43,114 nucleotides of DNA from Solirubrobacteraceae bacterium (GTDB taxonomy: Bacteria; Actinomycetota; Thermoleophilia; Solirubrobacterales; Solirubrobacteraceae). Made by a program: the position numbers and the translations under genes. Shown piece by piece: positions 4,251 through 37,110 of this stretch. The notes below the pieces were generated by a model. It saw only the letters and a list, made by a program, of their open reading frames with translations, ran no database searches and was not told where the DNA came from. The stretch spans positions 1-43,114 of the forward strand of contig DATAUX010000224.1 of NCBI GenBank assembly GCA_036268015.1, written 5' to 3'. Each line of letters starts with the position of its first letter. Within the stretch, counting starts at the first letter, position 1.

Positions 4251-4985
4251 ATGAGGCGGACGATGCTGACGGGGGCGCTGCTCGTCGGAGGCCTGCTCGG
4301 GCTTCCGGCCGCCGGCGCGCAGGCGGCGACGCAGTGCACCGGCCTGCTCACCGACCAGACGATCAACGGGCCGCTCCAGGTCCCGCCGAACTCCGTCTGC
4401 GCCCTGATGGGCGTCAGGGTCAACGGCAGCGTCTCGATCGGAAAGGGCGCGGCGTTCGCGCTCGGCTACAGGAACGCGCCTCGCGGCAACACGATCACCG
4501 GGGCGATCAACGGCACCGACATCCAATCGTTCGACACCGACGTCCCCGGCTCGACCGTCGACGGAGCGATCGACCTCAAAGGCGTCACGACGGTTCCGTA
4601 CCTCAGTCTCCTCAGCACGCTCGGCCTGCCGGACCTCGACACCGACGGGGCGAATTTCTTCACGGCGCTCGACGTCCACGGTGCCACGGACATCACGGGG
4701 AGCCTGGCCGGCGCCCGGTGGGACGACGACACGGGTTACCCGAGCGACTTCGCCGGCGGCTTCAGCTACACCGGGAACGCGGCCTATCTCAGCCTGGTCA
4801 ACGGCAGCACGATCGGCAGCGCGATGACCGTCAAGGGGAACACCGGTGGCGGAGAGCTCGGAAGGCTGGCCGGCCTGAAGATCGGTGGCAGCCTGAGCTG
4901 CGGCAACGCCCCGGCCTTCAGCGTGTACGCGGTCCAGGTCACCGGCCACGACGGCGCGACCAGCGCGACCGGCGGCCTCTGCTGA
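4251..4985 (+). CDS. secreted hypothetical protein (Gly/Thr/Asn-rich, beta-helix-like by composition)
   Basis: ATG at 4251 is preceded by AGGGAGAG. The signal peptide is MRRTMLTGALLVGGLLGLPAAGAQA. GC3 is high. I recognise no family. Confidence 0.65.
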   Translation: MRRTMLTGALLVGGLLGLPAAGAQAATQCTGLLTDQTINGPLQVPPNSVCALMGVRVNGSVSIGKGAAFALGYRNAPRGNTITGAINGTDIQSFDTDVPGSTVDGAIDLKGVTTVPYLSLLSTLGLPDLDTDGANFFTALDVHGATDITGSLAGARWDDDTGYPSDFAGGFSYTGNAAYLSLVNGSTIGSAMTVKGNTGGGELGRLAGLKIGGSLSCGNAPAFSVYAVQVTGHDGATSATGGLC

Positions 4986-5050
4986 GCGGGTGACCGGCTG
5001 CCTCTGCTGAGCGGGTGACCGGCGGCCTCTGCTGAGCGGGCGACGGGCGG
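4976..5050. repeat. 25-bp tandem repeat x3 (CCTCTGCTGAGCGGGTGACCGGYKG) spanning the stop codon of the 4251..4985 gene
   Basis: Units lie at 4976-5000, 5001-5025 and 5026-5050 with 1-3 mismatches. Each unit re-copies the ...CTC TGC TGA end of the CDS. Confidence 0.9.
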
Positions 5051-5068
5051 CCGCTGCCGGGCCTCGTC

Positions 5069-10083: not shown

Positions 10084-10905
10084 TCAGTGTCCGGCTGCCA
10101 GCTGACTTCGATGGGCCGCGTACTGCCGGGCGAACCCGACCACGAAACGCGGGTTGTAGCGGGCGTACCGACGCCACAGCCGGCGCGGCTCGTGCATCAG
10201 CCGGTAGGTCCATTCGAGTCCGAGGCTCTGCATCCATGACGGCGCCTGGGGCACCAGGCCGGCGTGGAAGTCGAAGGCCGCGCCGACGCCGATCAGCATC
10301 GGCACGTCGAGCCGCTCGCGCAGCCGTCCCATCCAGATCTCCTGCTTCGGCTGGCCGGTCCCGACCCAGACGACGTCGGCGCCCGACGCGTTGATCTGCT
10401 CGACGATCCAGTCGTCCTCGCTCTGCGTCGGCGGCGTGAACGGCGGCGCGTAGCCGCCGACGATGCGCACGCCGGGAAACCGCTCGCGCAGGTTGCGGGC
10501 CAGCGCCATCAGGGCGCCCTGGTTGCGACCGCCGTACAGGTACATCCGCAGGCCGGACGTCGCCGCCCGCTCGCAGTACCGGGCCATCAGCTCGGGTCCG
10601 TAGACGCGCGACGTGCCCGTGCTGTGGCCGAGCGCGTGCAGCGCCCAGACCAGGGGCTGCCCATCCGGGACGGCGAGCGTGGCTCCGAGCACGGCGTCGC
10701 GGGTCGCCTGGTCCTCCTGGGCGACCATCACGAGGTGGACCGCCGCAGCCGTGAGGTAGCCCCGCGATCTGCTGGCGACCATCGCGTCCATCCAGTCCAT
10801 CGTGGCCTCGTAGTCCGACAGGGCCAGCGGGACGCCGAGCACATCGGCCTGCGGGAGCGGCAGCGGCGTCGGCACTACCTGTTGCGTTGGTGTAGGGCTG
10901 GTCAT
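10084..10905 (-). CDS. WecB/TagA/CpsF-family glycosyltransferase (N-acetylmannosaminyl(uronosyl)transferase-like)
   Basis: ORF 10084..10905. Family motifs: VPDGQPLVWA, MYLYGG, FPGVRIVGGYAPPF, ADVVWVGTGQPKQEIW, IGVGAAFDFHAG, EWTYRL..EPRRLWRRY. Confidence 0.9.
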   Translation of the reverse strand: MTSPTPTQQVVPTPLPLPQADVLGVPLALSDYEATMDWMDAMVASRSRGYLTAAAVHLVMVAQEDQATRDAVLGATLAVPDGQPLVWALHALGHSTGTSRVYGPELMARYCERAATSGLRMYLYGGRNQGALMALARNLRERFPGVRIVGGYAPPFTPPTQSEDDWIVEQINASGADVVWVGTGQPKQEIWMGRLRERLDVPMLIGVGAAFDFHAGLVPQAPSWMQSLGLEWTYRLMHEPRRLWRRYARYNPRFVVGFARQYAAHRSQLAAGH

Positions 10906-11036
10906 TGCCGGGCCTACCCCCTAAATGTAGGGTTGGTCATTTACCGTACCTACCCCATAAACGCAGTTTCGCACGAAAGGTTGTGCACTTGCTCGGAGGA
11001 GTCGACGATCCGTCGGACTACACTGGTCGGCGAGCG

Positions 11037-19158: not shown

Positions 19159-20109
19159 TCAGTCGTCGCTCAGCCACCGCTTGTCGATCTTGACGATGTA
19201 CGTGTACTTCGGGTTGACGATCTGCGTCGCCCGGGCCTCGGCGACCTGACCCAGGAGCATCAGGGCGCCCTCGACGGTGAACCCGTGGTCGGCCGCCATC
19301 CACTCGACGAGGTCCCGCACGGCCAGGCGGAAGGCGTCCTCGAGCGGACGGGCGCACGCGATCACGCCGATCTGCGACTCGGTCTCGATCCGCGGCCAGC
19401 GCATCTCCGGCGGACGGGGTGCGAGGTCGAGGCGAACCGTCGTGTCCGTCCGGCATTCGATGCCGCCCAGGCCGCAGAGCTCGCCGTCGCCCTGGCGGGC
19501 GTGGCAGTCGCCGAGCGCGAACAGGGCCCCGTCGACCGCGATCGGCAGGTAGACCCGGCAGCCCGGGCCGATCTCCTGGACGTCGAGGTTCCCCCCGTGA
19601 CGGCCGTTGTCGACCGTGCTGACCGCCTCGACGAGCGGCGCGCAGCCGATCACGCCGACCATCGGCCTGATCGGGATCGGACGGCCGCCCGGCCACTCGA
19701 TCAGGCCGTCGGCGATCCGCACGACGTTCGCATGGACGCCGAACTCACGCTCCCTGATCCAGTCGGTGAACGGCGACAGGCCGGGTACGAGACCGGTCAG
19801 TCCCGGGCTGTGGACGTCGATCGCCTCGATCTCGCAGACCACCACGTGGTCGGCGGTCGCTCCCCGGATCTCGATCGGCCCGGTCGCCGGGTTCAACCAC
19901 GGCGGCCTGACCATCTCGACGGAGAACGCGTCGCCGTCGTCGTGGAGCACGTCGCCGATGTTGAGCTCCGTCTCGATCCGGACCCGGGTCCCCGGATCGA
20001 CGCTGAGCACCGGCGGATGATCCGGCCCGAGCGTGTACAGCAGGCCGTCGGATCGCTTCAGCTCGACGGCGCCGGCCGCCGGCACCGCCGGCCCGGGTCG
20101 ACTGGTCAC
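19159..20109 (-). CDS. acetamidase/formamidase-family amidohydrolase (copy 1)
   Basis: GTG at 20109 overlaps the permease stop (GTGA). Family motifs: NPATGPIEIRGA, DNGRHGGNLD, FALGDCHARQGDGELCG. Confidence 0.85.
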   Translation of the reverse strand: MTSRPGPAVPAAGAVELKRSDGLLYTLGPDHPPVLSVDPGTRVRIETELNIGDVLHDDGDAFSVEMVRPPWLNPATGPIEIRGATADHVVVCEIEAIDVHSPGLTGLVPGLSPFTDWIREREFGVHANVVRIADGLIEWPGGRPIPIRPMVGVIGCAPLVEAVSTVDNGRHGGNLDVQEIGPGCRVYLPIAVDGALFALGDCHARQGDGELCGLGGIECRTDTTVRLDLAPRPPEMRWPRIETESQIGVIACARPLEDAFRLAVRDLVEWMAADHGFTVEGALMLLGQVAEARATQIVNPKYTYIVKIDKRWLSDD

Positions 20110-21587
20110 GCCGGGTCGCTCGCGAGCGCCGCGACCGGCGCCGGCTCGGTCGCCAGCGCCCCGGCCGGCGTCTCCTCGCCGAGGTCGCGGAACGCGTAGT
20201 CGAGATCGATCGGCTGGTGCCGGGCGTCCCGCGCGAGGAGGTAGATCCCGCCGAGCAGGGTCCAGCCGACGATCACGTACGGCGACCACTTCAGCGGGGC
20301 TCCCGGGTTCGGGTAGAAGGCCGTGTAGACCGCCGGGATCAGGATCGCGATCCCGACGGCCGGGATCACGAGGTTCCGCAGGTAGCCCTTCTCCGGCTCG
20401 ACCTTGTGGAAGTAGACCATCGCCGCGAGCAGGATCAGGATGAACGCGACGGCCCCGGCCAGCCCGTTCGTGAAGCCGAGGAACCCGAATGCCTTCGTCG
20501 TGTTCCAGGCCCCGCCCATGACCAGCGTGACGATCACCGACACGGCGATCTGGACCGAGATCGCGAAGTACGGCGTCTGCCGGGTCCCGGTCCGGCCGAA
20601 CGCGCTCGGCAGGGCCTTCGCCCGGCCCATCCCGTACTGGATCCGGACGACCGCGTTGTGGCTGGCGATCGTGTTCCCGAGGACCGACGTCATGATCACC
20701 AGGGACAGCGCGTCCCGCCATCCCGAGCCGAGCCCGACCCGCCGGAACGCGGCCCACCACGGCGTCCCGTCGGCCGCGTTGGCGCTCGTCAGCGCGGCGA
20801 TCCCGTGGACGCCGAAGGCCGAGACCATCGCGAAGCAGGCGAACAGCAGGAGCAGCCCGATGCTGATCAGGGCGACGAAGATCGCCCGGGGGACGTTGCC
20901 GTGTGGGTCGCGGACCTCCTCGCCGAGCGTGAACGACTGCTCGAAGCCGAGGAAGATCAGCACGCCGCTGGCGACCGCCAACGACAGGCCGGTGAACCCG
21001 CCGGCCGCGTGGGTCGGCGTCAGCGACCCGAGCGACAGGTGGCTGACCTTCGAGACGAGCGCGATGCTCGCGATCAGCAGGACCAGGTTCGCGAGGATCG
21101 CCAGGCCCAGGTCGATCCGCGTCGAGATCCTGATCCCGACGAGCGACAGCGTCAGGGCGATGCCGGCCGCCAGCATCGAGTAGATCCACCACGGCAGGTC
21201 GATCCCGAAGACGTAGTCGAGTCCCGAGTGCGCATACAGGCCGAAGGCCAGCAGCAGCTGCGGTACGAAGAGCACGTAGTACATGAACGACAGCCACGCC
21301 GACAGGAAGCCGGCCCGCTCACCGAGTCCGTGACTGACGTACGAGTAGATCGAGGCCGCGCTCGGCAGCTGGCGCGCGAAGCGCGTGATCGTCAGGGCGA
21401 CGATGCACATCGCAAAGCCGCAGACCAGGACGATGAACGGGGCCGAGAAGCCGGCGCTGATCGCGATCAGCGGGGCCACCGACAGGGCACCCAGGAGCGG
21501 GCCCATCGCCTCGACCGACAGCGCGAGCGACTCCCAGAACCCGATCGAGCGCTTTCGCAGGCCGGTCTTCGCCTCTGAGGCACCCAT
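20106..21587 (-). CDS. APC-superfamily amino-acid/amide permease (about 12 TM)
   Basis: ORF 20106..21587, hydrophobic throughout. The N-terminal LRKRSIGFWESLALSVEAMGP resembles the APC signature region. SD-like AGAGGAA lies upstream. Confidence 0.9.
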   Translation of the reverse strand: MGASEAKTGLRKRSIGFWESLALSVEAMGPLLGALSVAPLIAISAGFSAPFIVLVCGFAMCIVALTITRFARQLPSAASIYSYVSHGLGERAGFLSAWLSFMYYVLFVPQLLLAFGLYAHSGLDYVFGIDLPWWIYSMLAAGIALTLSLVGIRISTRIDLGLAILANLVLLIASIALVSKVSHLSLGSLTPTHAAGGFTGLSLAVASGVLIFLGFEQSFTLGEEVRDPHGNVPRAIFVALISIGLLLLFACFAMVSAFGVHGIAALTSANAADGTPWWAAFRRVGLGSGWRDALSLVIMTSVLGNTIASHNAVVRIQYGMGRAKALPSAFGRTGTRQTPYFAISVQIAVSVIVTLVMGGAWNTTKAFGFLGFTNGLAGAVAFILILLAAMVYFHKVEPEKGYLRNLVIPAVGIAILIPAVYTAFYPNPGAPLKWSPYVIVGWTLLGGIYLLARDARHQPIDLDYAFRDLGEETPAGALATEPAPVAALASDPA

Positions 21588-25041: not shown

Positions 25042-25800
25042 TCAGGCGAGCCGCGCCCGGCCGGGATCGGAGCGCAGCACCGAGCGCATCCCGCGCTCGG
25101 ACTCGGCGAGGTGGTCGCGCATCGCCTGCCGGGCTCCGTCGGGATCGCCGGCGGCGATCCGGTCGATGATCCGCTCGTGCGCCTGCTGCACCTCGCGGAC
25201 GATCGCCGCGTCCGAGAGGGTGGGCAGCTGGACCGTCAGCAGAACCTCGCGGATCGAGTCGATCAGGATCTCGAAGAAGGCGTTGTCGGTGGCCGTCGCG
25301 ATCGCCCGGTGAAACTCCGTGTCGACGAGCGCGGCGTCCTGCGCCGGCAGCCCGACCCGGAGCCGGGCGGCCGCCGTGCGCAGGGCGTCGACCTGGTCGG
25401 CCGACGCGCGTCCGGCCGCGAGGCCGGCATTCTCGACCTCGACGAGCGCGCGCACCTCCATCAGCTTGCCGTAGTCGAGGCGCTGGCCCCGGAGGTACAG
25501 GGTCAGCGACTCGGTCACCGTCTCGCGTCCGAGCGCCTGGACGACGTGCCCGCGGCGGGGATTGTCGGCCAGGAGTCCCTTGGCCGTCAGCGACCGCACG
25601 GCTTCGCGGACGACCGGACGCGACACGCCGAAGAGCTCGCCGAGCTCGCGCTCCGATGGCAGCTTGTCCCCCGGCTCGAGGCGGCCCGAGACGATCGAGT
25701 CGGCGACGGCGCTGGCGACCTTGTCGGCCAGGCCGACGCCCCGTTCGAGCCGCTCGAAGCTGCTCAGCACGCCTGGCGCGATCGGTTCCTCCAATCCCAT
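25042..25800 (-). CDS. GntR-family transcriptional regulator, FadR subfamily (FCD C-terminal domain)
   Basis: Inside ORF 25042..26109; ATG at 25800 (alternative 25842). Winged-helix motif LPSERELGELFGVSRPVVREAVRSL. FCD motifs DTEFHRAIATATDN and AHERIIDRIAAGD. Confidence 0.9.
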   Translation of the reverse strand: MGLEEPIAPGVLSSFERLERGVGLADKVASAVADSIVSGRLEPGDKLPSERELGELFGVSRPVVREAVRSLTAKGLLADNPRRGHVVQALGRETVTESLTLYLRGQRLDYGKLMEVRALVEVENAGLAAGRASADQVDALRTAAARLRVGLPAQDAALVDTEFHRAIATATDNAFFEILIDSIREVLLTVQLPTLSDAAIVREVQQAHERIIDRIAAGDPDGARQAMRDHLAESERGMRSVLRSDPGRARLA

Positions 25801-25951
25801 CAACGGGAGGGTATCGGCGCGGTCGACGGAATGGTCGGGCATCGATGCCGCGAGGCTGGATATCGGCGGGGCCTCCCCGGCTGCACGCCCGCCGGCGCGG
25901 GCTCGGCCCGGGCGGGTTTGCGCCCGCGGCTGGCCGGGTAACTCACTGAAC

Positions 25952-26188
25952 ATGGAATACGGAACCTCGATACTCCTCATCGCAGTCGGCGCGATCCTCA
26001 AGTTCGCGGTCACGACCACCGTCTCCGGAATCTCGCTGCAGACGGTCGGCGTGATCCTGATGCTGGTCGGTGCGCTCGGGCTCCTCCTGTCGATCGTCTC
26101 GATCGCCACGTGGCGGCGTGATCGTCGTGATGTCGTCGTCGCCCCGGATCGCGTCGTCGTCCCGGATCGCGACCGCCCGCTCTACTGA
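25952..26188 (+). CDS. DUF6458-like small membrane protein (2 TM)
   Basis: ATG at 25952 inside ORF 25562..26188. MEYGTSILLIAVGAILKFAV...VGVILMLVGALGLLLSIV resembles the actinobacterial DUF6458 family as I remember it. Confidence 0.7.
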   Translation: MEYGTSILLIAVGAILKFAVTTTVSGISLQTVGVILMLVGALGLLLSIVSIATWRRDRRDVVVAPDRVVVPDRDRPLY

Positions 26189-26240
26189 GCAGGGGGTCGC
26201 GTCACAGGATGTGGCGTCAGGGAGCCAGATCCGGGCCGCC

Positions 26241-26342
26241 CGACGCGGGGTCCGGTCGACCAGGGCCGACGCGGGGTCCGGTCGACCAGGGCCGACGCGG
26301 GTCCGGACGACCAGGGCCGACGCGGGTCCGGACGACCGGGGC
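26241..26342. repeat. tandem repeat, 4 units of 26/26/25/25 bp (CGACGCGGGGTCCGGTCGACCAGGGC and variant)
   Basis: Units 26241-26266 and 26267-26292 are identical. Units 26293-26317 and 26318-26342 are a 25-bp variant. A partial fifth copy runs into an imperfect hairpin at 26344-26369. Confidence 0.9.
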
Positions 26343-26413
26343 CGACCAGGGTCGGTCTCGCCCTGGGTCTGATCGCAAGCGGGGGGCGAGCAGGCGGTCT
26401 GCGCGAGAACCCG

Positions 26414-26502
26414 AGTACTGGACCGTCCAGTACTGGCTGAGTACTGATCAGTACTCGCCCAGTACTCCTCGGTACCGGCCCGGTACTGGACCGTCCAGTA
26501 CC
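26414..26502. repeat. array of eight GTAC-centred sites forming three perfect palindromes, phased at 10-11 bp
   Basis: GTAC starts at 26415, 26430, 26441, 26451, 26462, 26472, 26483 and 26498. Palindromes: 26414-26434 AGTACTGGACcGTCCAGTACT, 26439-26456 GAGTACTGATCAGTACTC, 26482-26502 GGTACTGGACcGTCCAGTACC. Confidence 0.9.
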
Positions 26503-26582
26503 CGACGCGATCCGGAGAATTGGCATCGTGTCTCGGCTGCTCGACACTGGGGCTGCGAATCTCTCGAGGAGCGGGCCCCGGA

Positions 26583-28850
26583 TCAGGCCGGGACTGGGGT
26601 GGCGGCGCGGTCGGACTCGCGGTCGAGCACCGCGACCAGCGCTTCGACGGCCTGCGCGTCGAACTGACTCCCCGCGCAGCGCACCAGCTCGGCGCGAGCC
26701 GACGCTGGTCCGATCGACGGCCGGTACGCCCGGTCGCTCGTCATCGCCTCGTAGGCGTCGGCTACCGCGAGGATGCGGGCCTCGAGTGCGACCCCACGCC
26801 CCGCGAGTCCGCCGGGATAGCCCCGGCCGTCGGGCCGCTCGTGGTGGGCGGCCACCCATGGCCGGATGTCTGCGAGGCAGGGGTGCTCGAGGATCTGCGA
26901 GCCGAGCGCCGGATGCGTCCGGATCGTCGCGAGCTCGTCAGGACCAAGCGCTCCCGGCTTGTTGAGGATCGCGTCGGGCACGCCGACCTTGCCGATGTCG
27001 TGGAGCAGGCCGGCCAGCCTGACCCGGCCGATCCGATGCTCGGAGAGACCGAGCTCGCGGGCCATCATCTCCGCGTACCGGCCGACCGTCTCCGAATGCC
27101 GGGCGCTCCCGCTGAAGCGGAGGTCGACGGCTCCGGCCAGGTCGAGCATGACCGCTGTGAACCGCTCGCCCTCGACGTCACGGCCGCGCCCGCCGAAGTC
27201 CGCGTGGTCGGGCGTATCCCGGCTGAACGCGACACTCCGGTTGCGACCGCTCTGCTTGGCTGCGTAGAGGGCGTCGTCGGCCGCGTGGATGAGCGACGCG
27301 GCGGTCTCGCCGTGGCCGGGGAAGGCCGCCAGGCCGAAGCTGATCGTGATCGGCACGGCATCGCCGGCGAACTCGTCGAGCACGGCCCGCCGCAGTCGCT
27401 CGGCCACGACGAGGCCGCCGGCCTGGTCGGTGTCCGGAAGGATCAGGGCGAACTCCTCGCCGCCGACCCGGGCGACGGTGTCGATCTTTCTCCGGGACGA
27501 TTCGAGGACGTCGGTGATCCGCTGGAGCACGATGTCGCCGATCTGATGACCCGACCGGTCGTTGACCGTCTTGAAGTGATCGATGTCGGCCGCGACGAGC
27601 GTGATCTCCTGCCGGCTGCGCCGGGCCCGCTCGAGTTCGAGGTCGAGCAGCTCGCGGAACCCCCGCCGGTTGAGCAGCTTCGTCAGCGGATCGGTACGCG
27701 CCGCGTCGTAGAGGCGGCCGATCAGCAGCTCGACGTGCGCGCGCATCGTCCAGATCAGGGCGGCCGTGACGAGCAGCGTGCCCATCGTCACGACCCACCA
27801 GCTCGCCGCACCGGACGGCGGCGCGACGATCAAGAGGACGCCATAGGCGACGCCGACGTAGGCGATCTGGGCGGCCGTCTGTCGCTTGGTGAGGAAGTAC
27901 GACGAGTAGAGGAAGATCCAGACATAGAAGAAGATCAGCGGGCTCGGCCGCTCGGCCGAGAAGTAGGCGACGCCCGTGATCAGCGTGGTCCCCCAGGTCA
28001 GGGCCACCGGCAGCAGCCAGGTCGGCACGCTTCGCGCCCGCCGGACGAGGACGGCGGAGACGACGTACGCATTGGCGACGATGATCAGCAGGCCGAGCGC
28101 GTTCGGCCGGATCGCGTGCGGAAGCAGCAGCGTGAGCAGCGCGAGGCTGCCGCCGGCCAGGTACAGCCCGCCGAGGGCCTTTGCCATCAGCGCAACGCCG
28201 AAGCTCGAGTCGCCCCGGGTCAGGTGCCCGCTGGAGCGCTCTGGCGGGCAATCGCCGGCCATCCAGGCCGGCCGCTCGGCCGAGGCTCCCGGGAGGACGC
28301 TTGCGTGCCGGCCGCAGACCGCCGTGAAGGCGGGCCTGCAGCCGGTCTCGAAGCCGCTCGCCGGGTACGCACACAGAAGCGAGAAGGACCTATCGCGGCC
28401 GAGCTCGTTCCAGAGGTCTTCGAGCTCGAGCGTCGCCGAGACGTCGCCGTCGTCCCAGAGCAGGGCGACCATCTCGCCGTAGATCCGCACCGATCGTCCG
28501 CCGGCGGCCGCCCTGTCGATCACGCCGCCGATCCGCTCGCGGAAGCGGACGGGGTCGGGCGAACCGTCGACGATCAACGTGTCGAGCAGCTCGGACGCGT
28601 CGAGCGCCAGATACCGCCCGTCGGCGGTCGCCCCGTCCAGATCGATCCCCGCGGCCCGGAGCACGGCGGCGAAGGCGGCTCGGTGCTCGGCCGTCGCGAC
28701 GACGATCGCCGCGTCGTCTGAGCGGAGCGCCGGCCCGATGAAGGAGCCGACCGTCGCGGCCAGGTCGGCGTCGGTCTCGTAGAACTCGACGACGTGCTCG
28801 TGGCGGCGTCCCGCGCCCGAGCCGGCGCGCGAAGCCAGTGGTGACCGCAT
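26583..28850 (-). CDS. MEDS sensor domain - 6 TM - GGDEF diguanylate cyclase - HD-GYP phosphodiesterase
   Basis: Inside ORF 26583..29030; ATG at 28850 (alternatives 28868, 28880). MEDS: HVVEFYETDADL...IYGEMVALLW...LLCAYP. GGDEF: RKID I-site 5 aa before GGEEF. HD-GYP: LLHDIGK and HHERPDGRGYPGG. Confidence 0.9.
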   Translation of the reverse strand: MRSPLASRAGSGAGRRHEHVVEFYETDADLAATVGSFIGPALRSDDAAIVVATAEHRAAFAAVLRAAGIDLDGATADGRYLALDASELLDTLIVDGSPDPVRFRERIGGVIDRAAAGGRSVRIYGEMVALLWDDGDVSATLELEDLWNELGRDRSFSLLCAYPASGFETGCRPAFTAVCGRHASVLPGASAERPAWMAGDCPPERSSGHLTRGDSSFGVALMAKALGGLYLAGGSLALLTLLLPHAIRPNALGLLIIVANAYVVSAVLVRRARSVPTWLLPVALTWGTTLITGVAYFSAERPSPLIFFYVWIFLYSSYFLTKRQTAAQIAYVGVAYGVLLIVAPPSGAASWWVVTMGTLLVTAALIWTMRAHVELLIGRLYDAARTDPLTKLLNRRGFRELLDLELERARRSRQEITLVAADIDHFKTVNDRSGHQIGDIVLQRITDVLESSRRKIDTVARVGGEEFALILPDTDQAGGLVVAERLRRAVLDEFAGDAVPITISFGLAAFPGHGETAASLIHAADDALYAAKQSGRNRSVAFSRDTPDHADFGGRGRDVEGERFTAVMLDLAGAVDLRFSGSARHSETVGRYAEMMARELGLSEHRIGRVRLAGLLHDIGKVGVPDAILNKPGALGPDELATIRTHPALGSQILEHPCLADIRPWVAAHHERPDGRGYPGGLAGRGVALEARILAVADAYEAMTSDRAYRPSIGPASARAELVRCAGSQFDAQAVEALVAVLDRESDRAATPVPA

Positions 28851-29086
28851 CCGGCCCGCAGGACCCATCACCCTGGCCATCGGCCCGGCGCACGGGCGAC
28901 TTGAGATCGGCGAGCCGCCCGCCCCCGGCGCCGGCCGCCAGCGCCCGGGGCACTCCGGGTCAGCTCGAAGCCCGACCGTTCTCTGACGCGATTCCCAGGC
29001 TGCTCTCGGGGTCGCCGGCGATCCTTTCACGAGTCGCAGCGGCCACTCGATGCGATCCGCCCGACCACCAAAGGAGATCGATCAGG

Positions 29087-29317
29087 ATGAGACAGATCAA
29101 ACTAGCAATCGCCACCCTCGCCGCCACCGGCGCACTCGTCGGAGGCGGCGCCGCGATCGCGAGCGCCGCTTCGACCACGACCGCCGCGACCGGAACCACG
29201 GCCGCGACGACGACCGACCACGCCGGACCGCCCGCCGGCGCCAAGGGCACGCCGCCCGCCGGTGCGAAGGGCACGCCGCCGGCCGGCGCCGCGAAGGGTG
29301 ACTGCCCGAACATGTAG
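29087..29317 (+). CDS. small secreted Thr/Ala/Pro-rich repeat protein (76 aa)
   Basis: A strong SD (AAGGAG) lies 10 nt before ATG 29087. Signal peptide MRQIKLAIATLAATGALVGGGAAIASA. Contains 3 x PPAGAKGT-like repeats and ends GDCPNM. Confidence 0.6.
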   Translation: MRQIKLAIATLAATGALVGGGAAIASAASTTTAATGTTAATTTDHAGPPAGAKGTPPAGAKGTPPAGAAKGDCPNM

Positions 29318-35403: not shown

Positions 35404-35651
35404 CCGATCTCGTCTCCACTCGTCGTCGTGGCACCGATCGGCCGGCGCCGATGGCGTCCGGCGCGACCCTTTGTTGGCGTGCTCGACGAAAGATGCCTGC
35501 AATGCCGGGGGTCGCGCGCGTTTGACGCAAAGCTTGCAACTCCTTCCGGGCCTCCTCGCCGGATCCGGACGGGACCGGCGACCGTTGCGGCGGTCCTTCC
35601 CGGCGGCATTAGGCTGTGCGCGACATCCACATCGACCCAGGGAGTGGAAGG

Positions 35652-36698
35652 GTGAACACTACGGCGCAGCAGACCGGCGGCGAGGATCTCCGAGCGGACT
35701 TCGTGTTCGAGGGCGGTGGGGTCAAGGGCATCGGCCTGTCCGGCGCTTACCGCGAGCTGAGCGACCGCGGCTACCACGCACAGTGCGTCGCCGGCACGTC
35801 GGCCGGGGCGATCAACGCCGCGCTGGTCGCCTGCGGGTTCGACGGGGCGGAGGTCGAGGACGTCGCCCTCCACCGGATGAAGTTCCCCGAGTTCGAGGAC
35901 CGGAACTTCCTCGGCCGGTTCGGCAAGCCCGGCGAGGCGGCCGAGTTCTTCAAGACGCGCGGCATGCACAGCGGCGACTACTTCCTCACCTGGATGCGGG
36001 AGCTGCTCGCCGAGAAGGGGATCACCAAGTTCGGCCAGCTGCGCGACCCCGACGCCAAGTCCCCGGCCCGCGAGTACCGCCTCCAGGTGATCGCCTCTGA
36101 TCTCAGTGCCCGCAGCATGCTCGTCCTCCCGCGCGACGCCGCGAAGATCGGCTTCGAGCCCGACGATCTCGAGATCGCCCTGGCCGTGCGGATGAGCATG
36201 TCGATCCCGGTCTTCTTCAACCCGGTCACGCCCGTCGACGCCGACGGGCAGACCCACGTGATCGTCGACGGCGGCCTGCTCTCGAACTATCCGATCTGGC
36301 TCTTCGACGCGCCCGGCGACACCCAGCCGGAGTTCCCGACCTTCGGGATGCTGCTCGTCGCACCCAACCAGAAGGCCCCGCTGGTCGCGACCGGCGCCGA
36401 CGACGCACTCGCCGACGTGACGTCGGATCTCGGCTTCCTCAAGGCGATGGAGGCGACCGTGACCCAGGCTCACGACCGCTTCTACGTCGAGCAGGCCAAC
36501 TACGCCCGGACGATCCCGATCCCGACGCTCGGCGTCAAGACGACCGAGTTCGACGTCTCGCCCGAGCGCACCCAGGCGCTCTTCGACTCCGGCCGCTCGG
36601 CCGCCGCCCAGTTCCTCGAGACCTGGGACTTCCAGGGCTACAAGGACAAGTTCCGCAGCGGCACCACGCCGACCCGCCGCGACACCGTGACGCCCTGA
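35652..36698 (+). CDS. patatin-like phospholipase
   Basis: ORF 35616..36698. GTG 35652 is preferred because GGAG lies 7 nt upstream. Oxyanion motif FEGGGVKG, nucleophile GTSAG (GxSxG), catalytic Asp in IVDGGLLSNYP. Confidence 0.9.
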   Translation: MNTTAQQTGGEDLRADFVFEGGGVKGIGLSGAYRELSDRGYHAQCVAGTSAGAINAALVACGFDGAEVEDVALHRMKFPEFEDRNFLGRFGKPGEAAEFFKTRGMHSGDYFLTWMRELLAEKGITKFGQLRDPDAKSPAREYRLQVIASDLSARSMLVLPRDAAKIGFEPDDLEIALAVRMSMSIPVFFNPVTPVDADGQTHVIVDGGLLSNYPIWLFDAPGDTQPEFPTFGMLLVAPNQKAPLVATGADDALADVTSDLGFLKAMEATVTQAHDRFYVEQANYARTIPIPTLGVKTTEFDVSPERTQALFDSGRSAAAQFLETWDFQGYKDKFRSGTTPTRRDTVTP

Positions 36699-36732
36699 CG
36701 GACGCCGCTCCGCCGGCACGACCCGGCACCGA

Positions 36733-37110
36733 GTGAAGGTCCTCGACACAGCGTGGCGATCGACCATCTCCGCGGCGTCGATCCCGGCCGTCGACCTGCT
36801 GCGCCGCCTGATCGATCAGGGCGAATCGCTGGCCGCCAGTGAGCTCGTGCGCTTCGAGCTCGTCGCCGGCGTCCGCCCCCGCGAGATCGAGCTCCCCGAG
36901 CGGTTCTGCGCGGCGCTCGTCTGGGTCGCCGTCGACGAGACCGTCACGCGCGCGGCCGGTGCGCTGGCCCGCGAGCATCGCTGCGCGTTCGGCGGCATCG
37001 AGGACGTCGACCATCTGATCGCGGCGACCGCGCTGATCCTCGACGCCGACCTGTTGACGACGAACGTCCGCCACTTTCCCATGCTCCCGGGCCTCCAGCC
37101 GGCCTACTGA
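36733..37110 (+). CDS. PIN-domain protein (VapC-like), no cognate antitoxin ORF visible
   Basis: ORF 36733..37110 with a GTG start. Motifs VLDTAW (first acidic residue), SELVRFEL, IEDVDHLIAATA, LLTTNVRHFP. Confidence 0.75.
   Translation: MKVLDTAWRSTISAASIPAVDLLRRLIDQGESLAASELVRFELVAGVRPREIELPERFCAALVWVAVDETVTRAAGALAREHRCAFGGIEDVDHLIAATALILDADLLTTNVRHFPMLPGLQPAY

Follow-up and report, generated by a model that had tools for sequence, protein, structure and literature searches.

An 89-bp array of eight GTAC tetranucleotides was found at positions 26414–26502 of a 43,114-bp stretch of DNA from a Solirubrobacteraceae bacterium (contig DATAUX010000224.1, assembly GCA_036268015.1; the whole stretch is called the window below), in the spacer between two convergent genes, and both outer parts of this array match the operator consensus of an abundant subgroup of TetR-family repressors, a match that is well supported by sequence comparison. 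The array is read here as an orphan cluster of sites for repressors that contain the TetR_N and TetR_C_7 domains (AefR/MexL-like), serving as a decoy or a roadblock or having no function, and the chances that this reading is correct are judged to be about even. Binding at the array appears plausible, and any function of such binding is conjecture.

The GTAC array and the candidate operator of a TetR_C_7 subgroup

The array comprises the following elements:

Starts at 26415, 26430, 26441, 26451, 26462, 26472, 26483 and 26498: eight GTAC tetranucleotides, with start-to-start spacings of 15, 11, 10, 11, 10, 11 and 15 bp
26414–26434: outer candidate operator 1, perfect palindrome of 21 bp (10-nt arms, complementarity 100%), core GTACTGGACCGTCCAGTAC at 26415–26433
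26439–26456: inner 18-bp perfect palindrome GAGTACTGATCAGTACTC, with the GTACs at 26441 and 26451 lying 10 bp apart
26461–26476: second inner GTAC pair AGTACTCCTCGGTACC, with the GTACs at 26462 and 26472 lying 10 bp apart
26482–26502: outer candidate operator 2, perfect palindrome of 21 bp (10-nt arms, complementarity 100%) with the identical 19-nt core GTACTGGACCGTCCAGTAC at 26483–26501

A first-pass annotation of this DNA had described eight GTACs within 89 bp at a mirror-symmetric and near-helical spacing, two outer 21-bp palindromes sharing a 19-nt core, and an 18-bp perfect palindrome between them; the recounted positions are exact, both outer palindromes were recovered exactly by repeat search, and the 18-bp palindrome was confirmed as well. 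The hexamers around the eight GTACs are AGTACT in five cases and GGTACC, GGTACT and AGTACC in one case each, the two outer sites are separated by 68 bp, and a 21-bp periodicity within the array was reported by two repeat finders, one of which was Tandem Repeats Finder (TRF). The clustering is far beyond chance, as had also been claimed. At a local GC content of 0.71, GTAC occurs 95 times in the 43,114 bp (about one per 454 bp); the maximum per 89 bp was four in 500 dinucleotide-preserving shuffles and six when the 95 sites were placed randomly 20,000 times, and neither procedure ever gave the observed eight. The hexamer AGTACT is found nine times in the window against 1.1 expected, and five of these nine copies are within the array.

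GTAC is the site of RsaI and AGTACT that of ScaI, and this coincidence, together with a helical phasing like that of parC-type iteron arrays, would suit a cluster of restriction or methylation targets or a centromere-like, nucleoid-organising platform. Such roles are given hardly any probability. The parts of the window outside the array alone hold 87 GTACs and four AGTACTs, when about 54 and 1.1 would be expected for the whole window, a result that speaks against active restriction at GTAC or AGTACT; in addition, the array is not shared between species. The window is a piece of ordinary chromosome that has no TetR, partition, transposase or RAYT-like (REP-associated tyrosine transposase; REP, repetitive extragenic palindromic) genes among its annotated genes, and the centromere or partition site proposed in the first pass is therefore not borne out.

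The identity of the outer palindromes was approached by a scan of metagenome contigs with GTACTGGACNGTCCAGTAC, the 19-mer with its central base left free, which recovered 37 contigs. In at least 21 of the 37 (about 16 distinct loci) the palindrome adjoins a gene of one TetR subgroup, usually divergently oriented, whose products consist of TetR_N and TetR_C_7 (Pfam) and share a conserved N-terminus (...RSARKRRAILDAAT..FL..GYLGTSMD..A..VSKQTVYKHFADK...), with partner genes that vary and include those of alpha/beta-hydrolase, DUF1569/DinB, glyoxalase and SGL/SMP-30 proteins. The palindrome overlaps promoter elements at these loci, such as TTGACA, 17 nt and TAGTAT in L007, and a second, degenerate copy usually lies 27–38 bp from the first, a distance that refers to loci selected by pattern. 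In a selection-free check, three subgroup members were taken by protein search alone, and all three loci contain two sites, with 1–4 mismatches each, between the TetR gene and a divergent SGL gene; overall, the paired sites in real promoters are 27–41 bp apart. A few of the metagenome matches are fortuitous, lying within coding sequence or in a satellite of 35% GC. One of them, a tandem array of the 19-mer in L041 (2900–3318), is a satellite of 40-bp units, every one of which includes the 19-mer exactly or nearly so; it was set aside as a chance match because the contig has 35% GC and no open reading frames (ORFs), and it is probably eukaryotic satellite DNA. Viral contigs gave one match, a single operator in a promoter.

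A position matrix was then built on 21 sites that had not been selected by pattern. A3C4, A8C9, G11T12 and G16T17 are invariant or nearly so in this matrix, corresponding to four NNAC half-sites at 5-bp steps, and the same organisation is displayed by outer site 1, whose half-sites GTAC, GGAC, GTCC and GTAC follow one another at 5-bp steps. Both outer sites of the window score 32.6, the matrix maximum, while the training sites score at least 24.1 and the next best site in the 43 kb reaches 10.3. The sequences thus yield a candidate operator, GTACT-GGAC-N-GTCC-AGTAC, for a TetR_C_7 subgroup that is uncharacterised and very abundant among soil Actinobacteria (3242 proteins at E <= 1e-20), members of which were seen at loci L007–L043 and L086–L088. 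The nearest solved structures are 3bhq (an uncharacterised protein), MexL (8wrf), NalC and AefR. No publication describing the operator was found; a literature search by sequence strings returned primers only. The Joint Genome Institute (JGI) labels the subgroup 'mexJK repressor', yet the published MexL motif, reported as TGTAATTT (PMC11865548), is unrelated, and MexL was accordingly rejected as a model for the operator.

Interior sites and the whole-array hairpin

Differential conservation was observed within the array. When its three 21-bp units are compared, the inner GTAC cores show no mismatch at 16 positions and the non-core positions show 12 mismatches at 26 (P = 8.7e-4). The AC...GT register of one operator half (A3C4...G11T12) is preserved in the two GTAC pairs spaced by 10 bp (26441/26451 and 26462/26472) but not in the 11-bp pairs; each 10-bp pair could therefore hold one dimer, and we infer that each is a single-dimer site. 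The array would then consist of a full operator, two single-dimer sites and a second full operator, the distances between successive centres being 23.5, 21 and 23.5 bp. A comparable arrangement is found in the promoter of L014, where an additional, overlapping GTAC comes 11 bp behind a perfect operator, the same as in the window, and the left part of the array is identical at 33 of 41 bases to the operator region of this TetR–SGL locus.

By analogy with QacR and DarR, each outer operator would accommodate two dimers, bound to opposite faces of the helix, one dimer spanning half-sites 1 and 3 (GTAC...GTCC, starts 10 bp apart) and the second spanning half-sites 2 and 4, a stoichiometry that is suggested by the half-site geometry. 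The inner pairs would each hold one dimer, with all sites phased at about one helical turn. The first-pass suggestion of a DNA-level, multi-site protein-binding platform or 'operator stack' gains substance from these results, since the outer sites are exact consensus operators and the GTAC cores are conserved where the spacers are not.

The whole array also folds on itself:

26412–26504, either strand: imperfect inverted repeat with arms 26412–26455 and 26461–26504, 77% complementary, and loop CGCCC, forming a hairpin

The earlier statement that the palindromes make poor RNA hairpins does not hold for the array as a whole, which gives a hairpin with 44-nt arms and a 5-nt loop that had gone unnoticed. 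Its folding energy is -64.3 kcal/mol on the plus strand (z -7.4 against shuffles) and -65.4 kcal/mol on the minus strand (z -6.35). In absolute terms such stability is unexceptional for the genome, as 120-nt segments of the window average -52.8 +/- 8.5 kcal/mol and the array lies only about 1.3 standard deviations (SD) below this mean, outside the 15 most stable segments. The hairpin is located 80 nt past the stop codon of one convergent gene (encoding a GGDEF protein) and 226 nt past that of the other (encoding a DUF6458 protein), and it may, in transcripts, help to end both. A stable stem-loop shortly after both stops is thus present and a uridine tract (U-tract) after the stem is absent. 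Terminators lacking a U-tract have been reported in actinobacteria, so its absence does not exclude termination. The long hairpin looks like a by-product of self-complementary sites, because the inner mirror spacers can pair at just 2/5 and 2/4 positions.

These properties bear on the most serious alternative, in which the array is a neutral by-product of slipped-strand repeat amplification, with a 21-bp unit in about three copies between two copies of the palindrome, no binding protein, and at most a hairpin that helps to end both transcripts as an I-shaped terminator free of a U-tract, a type known from high-GC actinobacteria. The 21-bp periodicity and the hairpin of -64 kcal/mol, at z = -7 against shuffles, agree with it. 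Two exact 19-bp consensus operators of an unrelated protein family cannot be chance, however, the 21-bp units differ from one another outside the GTAC cores only, which is not the pattern of neutral repeat decay, the poorly complementary mirror spacers indicate that the stem is not what is kept, and the absent U-tract and the modest energy relative to other segments also weigh against it. This explanation is considered possible but on the unlikely side. The avoidance of the GTAC cores by mismatches and the non-complementary mirror spacers favour sequence-specific recognition over hairpin selection or neutral decay.

A dispersed element of the REP, REPIN (REP doublet forming a hairpin) or MITE (miniature inverted-repeat transposable element) kind, landed in an extragenic spacer, had also been proposed, in the form of a genome-wide palindromic repeat. 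The array does resemble REPIN and BIME (bacterial interspersed mosaic element) palindromes and I-shaped terminators in being extragenic, in lying between convergent genes and in joining two inverted palindrome copies into one long hairpin, and it differs from them in being single-copy as far as visible, in its non-complementary inner spacers and in lacking a U-tract. Only one copy exists in the 43 kb, with no partial copies within three mismatches, the array is missing from orthologous spacers, the metagenome matches to the 19-mer are promoter operators or chance coding matches and none has the 89-bp architecture, and no transposase or RAYT-like gene is annotated in the window and no flanking direct repeats were reported. 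The proposal is accordingly very improbable.

A broader scan of 185,579 genomes with the phased pattern AGTACTS-N2-3-SAGTACTS-N2-3-SAGTACT returned 40 matches (L044–L083), almost all of them perfect 10–11-bp minisatellites in unrelated taxa, which are uninformative for the array. Such AGTACT minisatellites occur in numerous unrelated bacterial genomes, among them eight of Streptomyces and those of Shewanella and Nitrososphaera.

The convergent spacer in strains and related species

The coding neighbourhood was resolved by third-position GC content together with Pfam, as the GC content of the window (about 71%) causes its mechanically called ORFs to overlap heavily. The features around the array are as follows:

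25042 to about 25840, minus strand: GntR/FCD regulator gene (third-position GC and Pfam)
25952–26188, plus strand: gene of a small DUF6458 membrane protein of 78 aa, stop at 26188 (Pfam)
26189–26582: convergent spacer of 394 bp that contains the array
26240–26357: tandem repeat beside the array, 25/26 bp in 4.7 copies, unit GGGTCCGGTCGACCAGGGCCGACGCG; context and not part of the array
26583–29030, minus strand: MEDS-GGDEF-HD-GYP gene, stop at 26583, start codon uncertain (Pfam)

The DUF6458 gene and the GGDEF gene converge on the spacer, so that it is flanked by the stops 26188 and 26583, as first annotated, and both genes are confirmed by Pfam. The product of the GGDEF gene is, by its Pfam domains, an enzyme of both synthesis and degradation of cyclic di-GMP (c-di-GMP). 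The remark that no promoter is needed at such a position stays true and unexplained, and it is the main oddity of the locus. Within the spacer there is no credible ORF, the small ORFs being Arg/Pro-rich non-coding frames only; the best Rfam hit has E = 0.2, with eukaryotic families only; and scans for consensus promoters of the sigma-70 type and for U-tract terminators found none. The tandem repeat at 26240–26357 lies 57 bp from the array, and each of its units contains an 8-bp palindrome, GGTCGACC or GTCCGGAC.

The mechanical ORF of the GntR/FCD gene (25042–26109, minus strand) extends for about 90 codons antisense through the DUF6458 gene, because the two frames share their third-codon positions; the real regulator corresponds to the C-terminal 255–265 aa only, and the plus-strand ORF 25562–26188 is real only from 25952. 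The GntR/FCD regulator was tried as the binder of the array and rejected, as its own divergent promoter region (about 25800–25952) contains no GTAC and relatives retain the GntR gene without the array.

The array is present in two further contigs, from near-identical strains (L001 and L002). Both outer operators are identical across the three strains, and the three point changes are all interior, namely G26439C in L001 and L002, and C26444T and C26458T in L001. The outermost base pair of the 18-bp palindrome is lost in L001 and L002 through G26439C, and the left GTAC of this palindrome reads GTAT in L001. The tandem repeat at 26240–26357 has one unit fewer in both strains. L002 has also lost a 21-bp segment at 26530–26550, GTCTCGGCTGCTCGACACTGG, which includes a small GTGTC/GACAC hairpin close behind the GGDEF stop.

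In relatives whose GGDEF protein is 75–81% identical, the gene order is kept, and the orthologous spacers carry other tandem repeats, mutually unrelated, in every related species. The spacers downstream of the orthologous MEDS-GGDEF-HD gene, and an extra gene found in some of them, are:

L003, 6320–6805: spacer
L004, 6338–7464: spacer with 27-bp and 34/105-bp arrays
L005, 6329–6675: spacer with a 16-bp repeat, CGAACAACGTTCGTCT, in at least six copies at the contig end
L006, 7547–8036: spacer with a 41-bp repeat in three copies
L084, 1809–2153: spacer with a repeat of about 30 bp in five copies
L084, 2154–3101; L006, 6341–7546; L004, 7465–8451: extra membrane-protein gene

The extra gene lies between the GGDEF and DUF6458 genes in these three relatives, its products having no Pfam match and 47–63% mutual identity; no copy or remnant of it is found in the spacer of the window, and the gene is also missing in L003. 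The differing repeats and the extra gene mark the spacer as a hypervariable hot spot, where repeats turn over and genes are gained or lost, and the array, as judged from these comparisons, is young and lineage-specific. It most likely arose recently, by local duplication of an operator-like sequence. The neutral by-product explanation is strengthened by the different and unrelated tandem repeats in the same spacer of every related species, by a second tandem repeat of strain-variable copy number only 57 bp away, and by conservation of the array in near-identical strains only.

Gene turnover in the spacer could also have stranded a promoter-operator here, if a TetR gene or a TetR-controlled gene had been deleted and its operators were left behind and later partly duplicated. 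The presence of the extra membrane-protein gene in L084, L006 and L004, and not in the window or L003, and the 33/41 identity to the L014 operator region speak for such an origin. Against it, no coding remnant of a TetR, an SGL or the extra gene is found in the spacer, no examined relative has a TetR gene at this position, and the extra gene of L084 has a different upstream palindrome, TGTGTGACC..GGTCACACA; this scenario is therefore regarded as unlikely.

Several observations weigh against the array being a cluster of TetR_C_7 repressor sites. Neither the 43-kb window nor some 50 kb from related Solirubrobacteraceae loci contains a TetR gene of the subgroup. The few subgroup members that carry a taxon label are assigned to Streptosporangiaceae, Frankiaceae and 'Actinomycetes', none to Thermoleophilia, and a cognate binder in this genome is thus hypothetical. 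The array is like the autoregulatory operators of TetR_C_7 (AefR/MexL/NalC-like) proteins in that its outer 19-bp palindromes are identical to the consensus and more than one site is present. It is unlike them in having no adjoining TetR gene and in standing outside a promoter, with no -10 element of the form TAnnnT after any site and no downstream ORF or Rfam RNA, and its full operators are 68 bp apart, beyond the 27–41 bp of real promoters, with the four further GTACs of the two inner pairs between them. The inner sites score below zero on the full 19-bp matrix. Among the strains, the interior of the array is more changed than the flanking spacer, and one L001 change breaks an invariant base of an inner site. 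Finally, no GTAC cluster occurs in the orthologous spacers of the species with a GGDEF protein of 75–81% identity, so no long-term constraint is visible, and the array may have no selected function.

The remaining genes of the window include sugar-nucleotide and polysaccharide genes, an amidase cluster, a permease, signalling genes, a patatin gene and a PIN-domain gene. Protein matches, which come from soil metagenomes, assign the organism to Solirubrobacteraceae (Thermoleophilia). The PIN-domain ORF (36691–37110, plus strand) overlaps the end of the patatin-like phospholipase gene (35613–36698), and no antitoxin partner was identified for it. A 36-bp direct repeat in two copies (TGTAGGGCTGGTCATTTACCGGACCTACCCCATAAA, 10891–10961), more AT-rich than its surroundings, lies between a WecG/TagA glycosyltransferase gene (minus strand) and a UDP-glucose dehydrogenase gene (plus strand) and may be a regulator binding site. 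Further tandem repeats were observed at 4967–5057 (25 bp in 3.6 copies), 29228–29290 (24 bp in 2.6 copies) and 20109–20170 (30 bp in 2.1 copies), and the one at 29228–29290 is inside a small Ala/Thr-rich ORF (29087–29314) that has a conserved counterpart (66% identity) upstream of the L003 GGDEF gene.

Known multi-dimer regulators and the meaning of the array

Platforms occupied by several TetR-family dimers are represented by EthR on its 55-bp operator, QacR on IR1 and SlmA on its SlmA-binding (SBS) sites. The array resembles these in offering extended, phased half-sites to several dimers, and SlmA sites are likewise not promoter operators, but the known systems have an established function (ethA or qacA repression, nucleoid occlusion) and none is evident for the array. 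The BldD box, TNAC-N5-GTNA, does not fit GTAC, and BldD was rejected as a binder.

DarR binds overlapping palindromes of the form ATACT-N4-AGTAT as a dimer of dimers, with four subunits each contacting a T-x-C motif (PMC10636190). The inner GTACT-N4-AGTAC units share this geometry and four of five bases per half-site. In contrast, the recognition helix of DarR reads T-K-G-x-x-Y-Y and that of the subgroup described here S-K-Q-T-V-Y-K, the outer sites have 9 nt and not 4 between TACT and AGTA, and the array does not lie in a promoter; DarR-like genes were not found either. LtmA and HpoR, two c-di-GMP-responsive regulators of Mycobacterium smegmatis, recognise GGACA-NN-TGTCC (PMC3526308, PMC5909442). 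They share with the array the CTGGAC half-site, as in TCTGGACA-NN-TGTCCAGA, and the array adjoins the gene of a c-di-GMP enzyme. Both were nevertheless rejected as binders, as the gap between GGAC and GTCC is 4 nt in their site and 1 nt here, a difference of 3 bp that is too great for the same dimer.

If a cognate repressor is encoded in this genome, the occupied array would titrate this protein as a sink, or would stop read-through as a roadblock that the ligand can release. In a more elaborate version, up to six dimers of a TetR repressor on one face of the DNA would form a ligand-gated roadblock or insulator between the convergent genes, so that transcription of the DUF6458 gene could not run on into the c-di-GMP enzyme gene in antisense, nor transcription of the latter into the DUF6458 gene, until a small-molecule ligand frees the repressor and antisense transcription is permitted. 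This version is decidedly unlikely; if it is true, TetR control of the MEDS-GGDEF-HD-GYP gene would be exerted at the 3' end of that gene, with no operator in its promoter.

Single operators of this type are themselves ordinary, and what appears to be new is that consensus TetR operators have been multiplied and placed outside any promoter, an unusual and probably minor variant. If it is not bound, the array would represent a young palindromic repeat in a hypervariable spacer. For the family, a candidate operator has been obtained for a subgroup that typically adjoins SGL/SMP-30, alpha/beta-hydrolase, DinB/DUF1569 and glyoxalase genes. Binding of the array in vivo would make it a clear natural example of repressor sites of high affinity that stand apart from any promoter, and would bear on how often decoy sites titrate transcription factors or form roadblocks between convergent genes.

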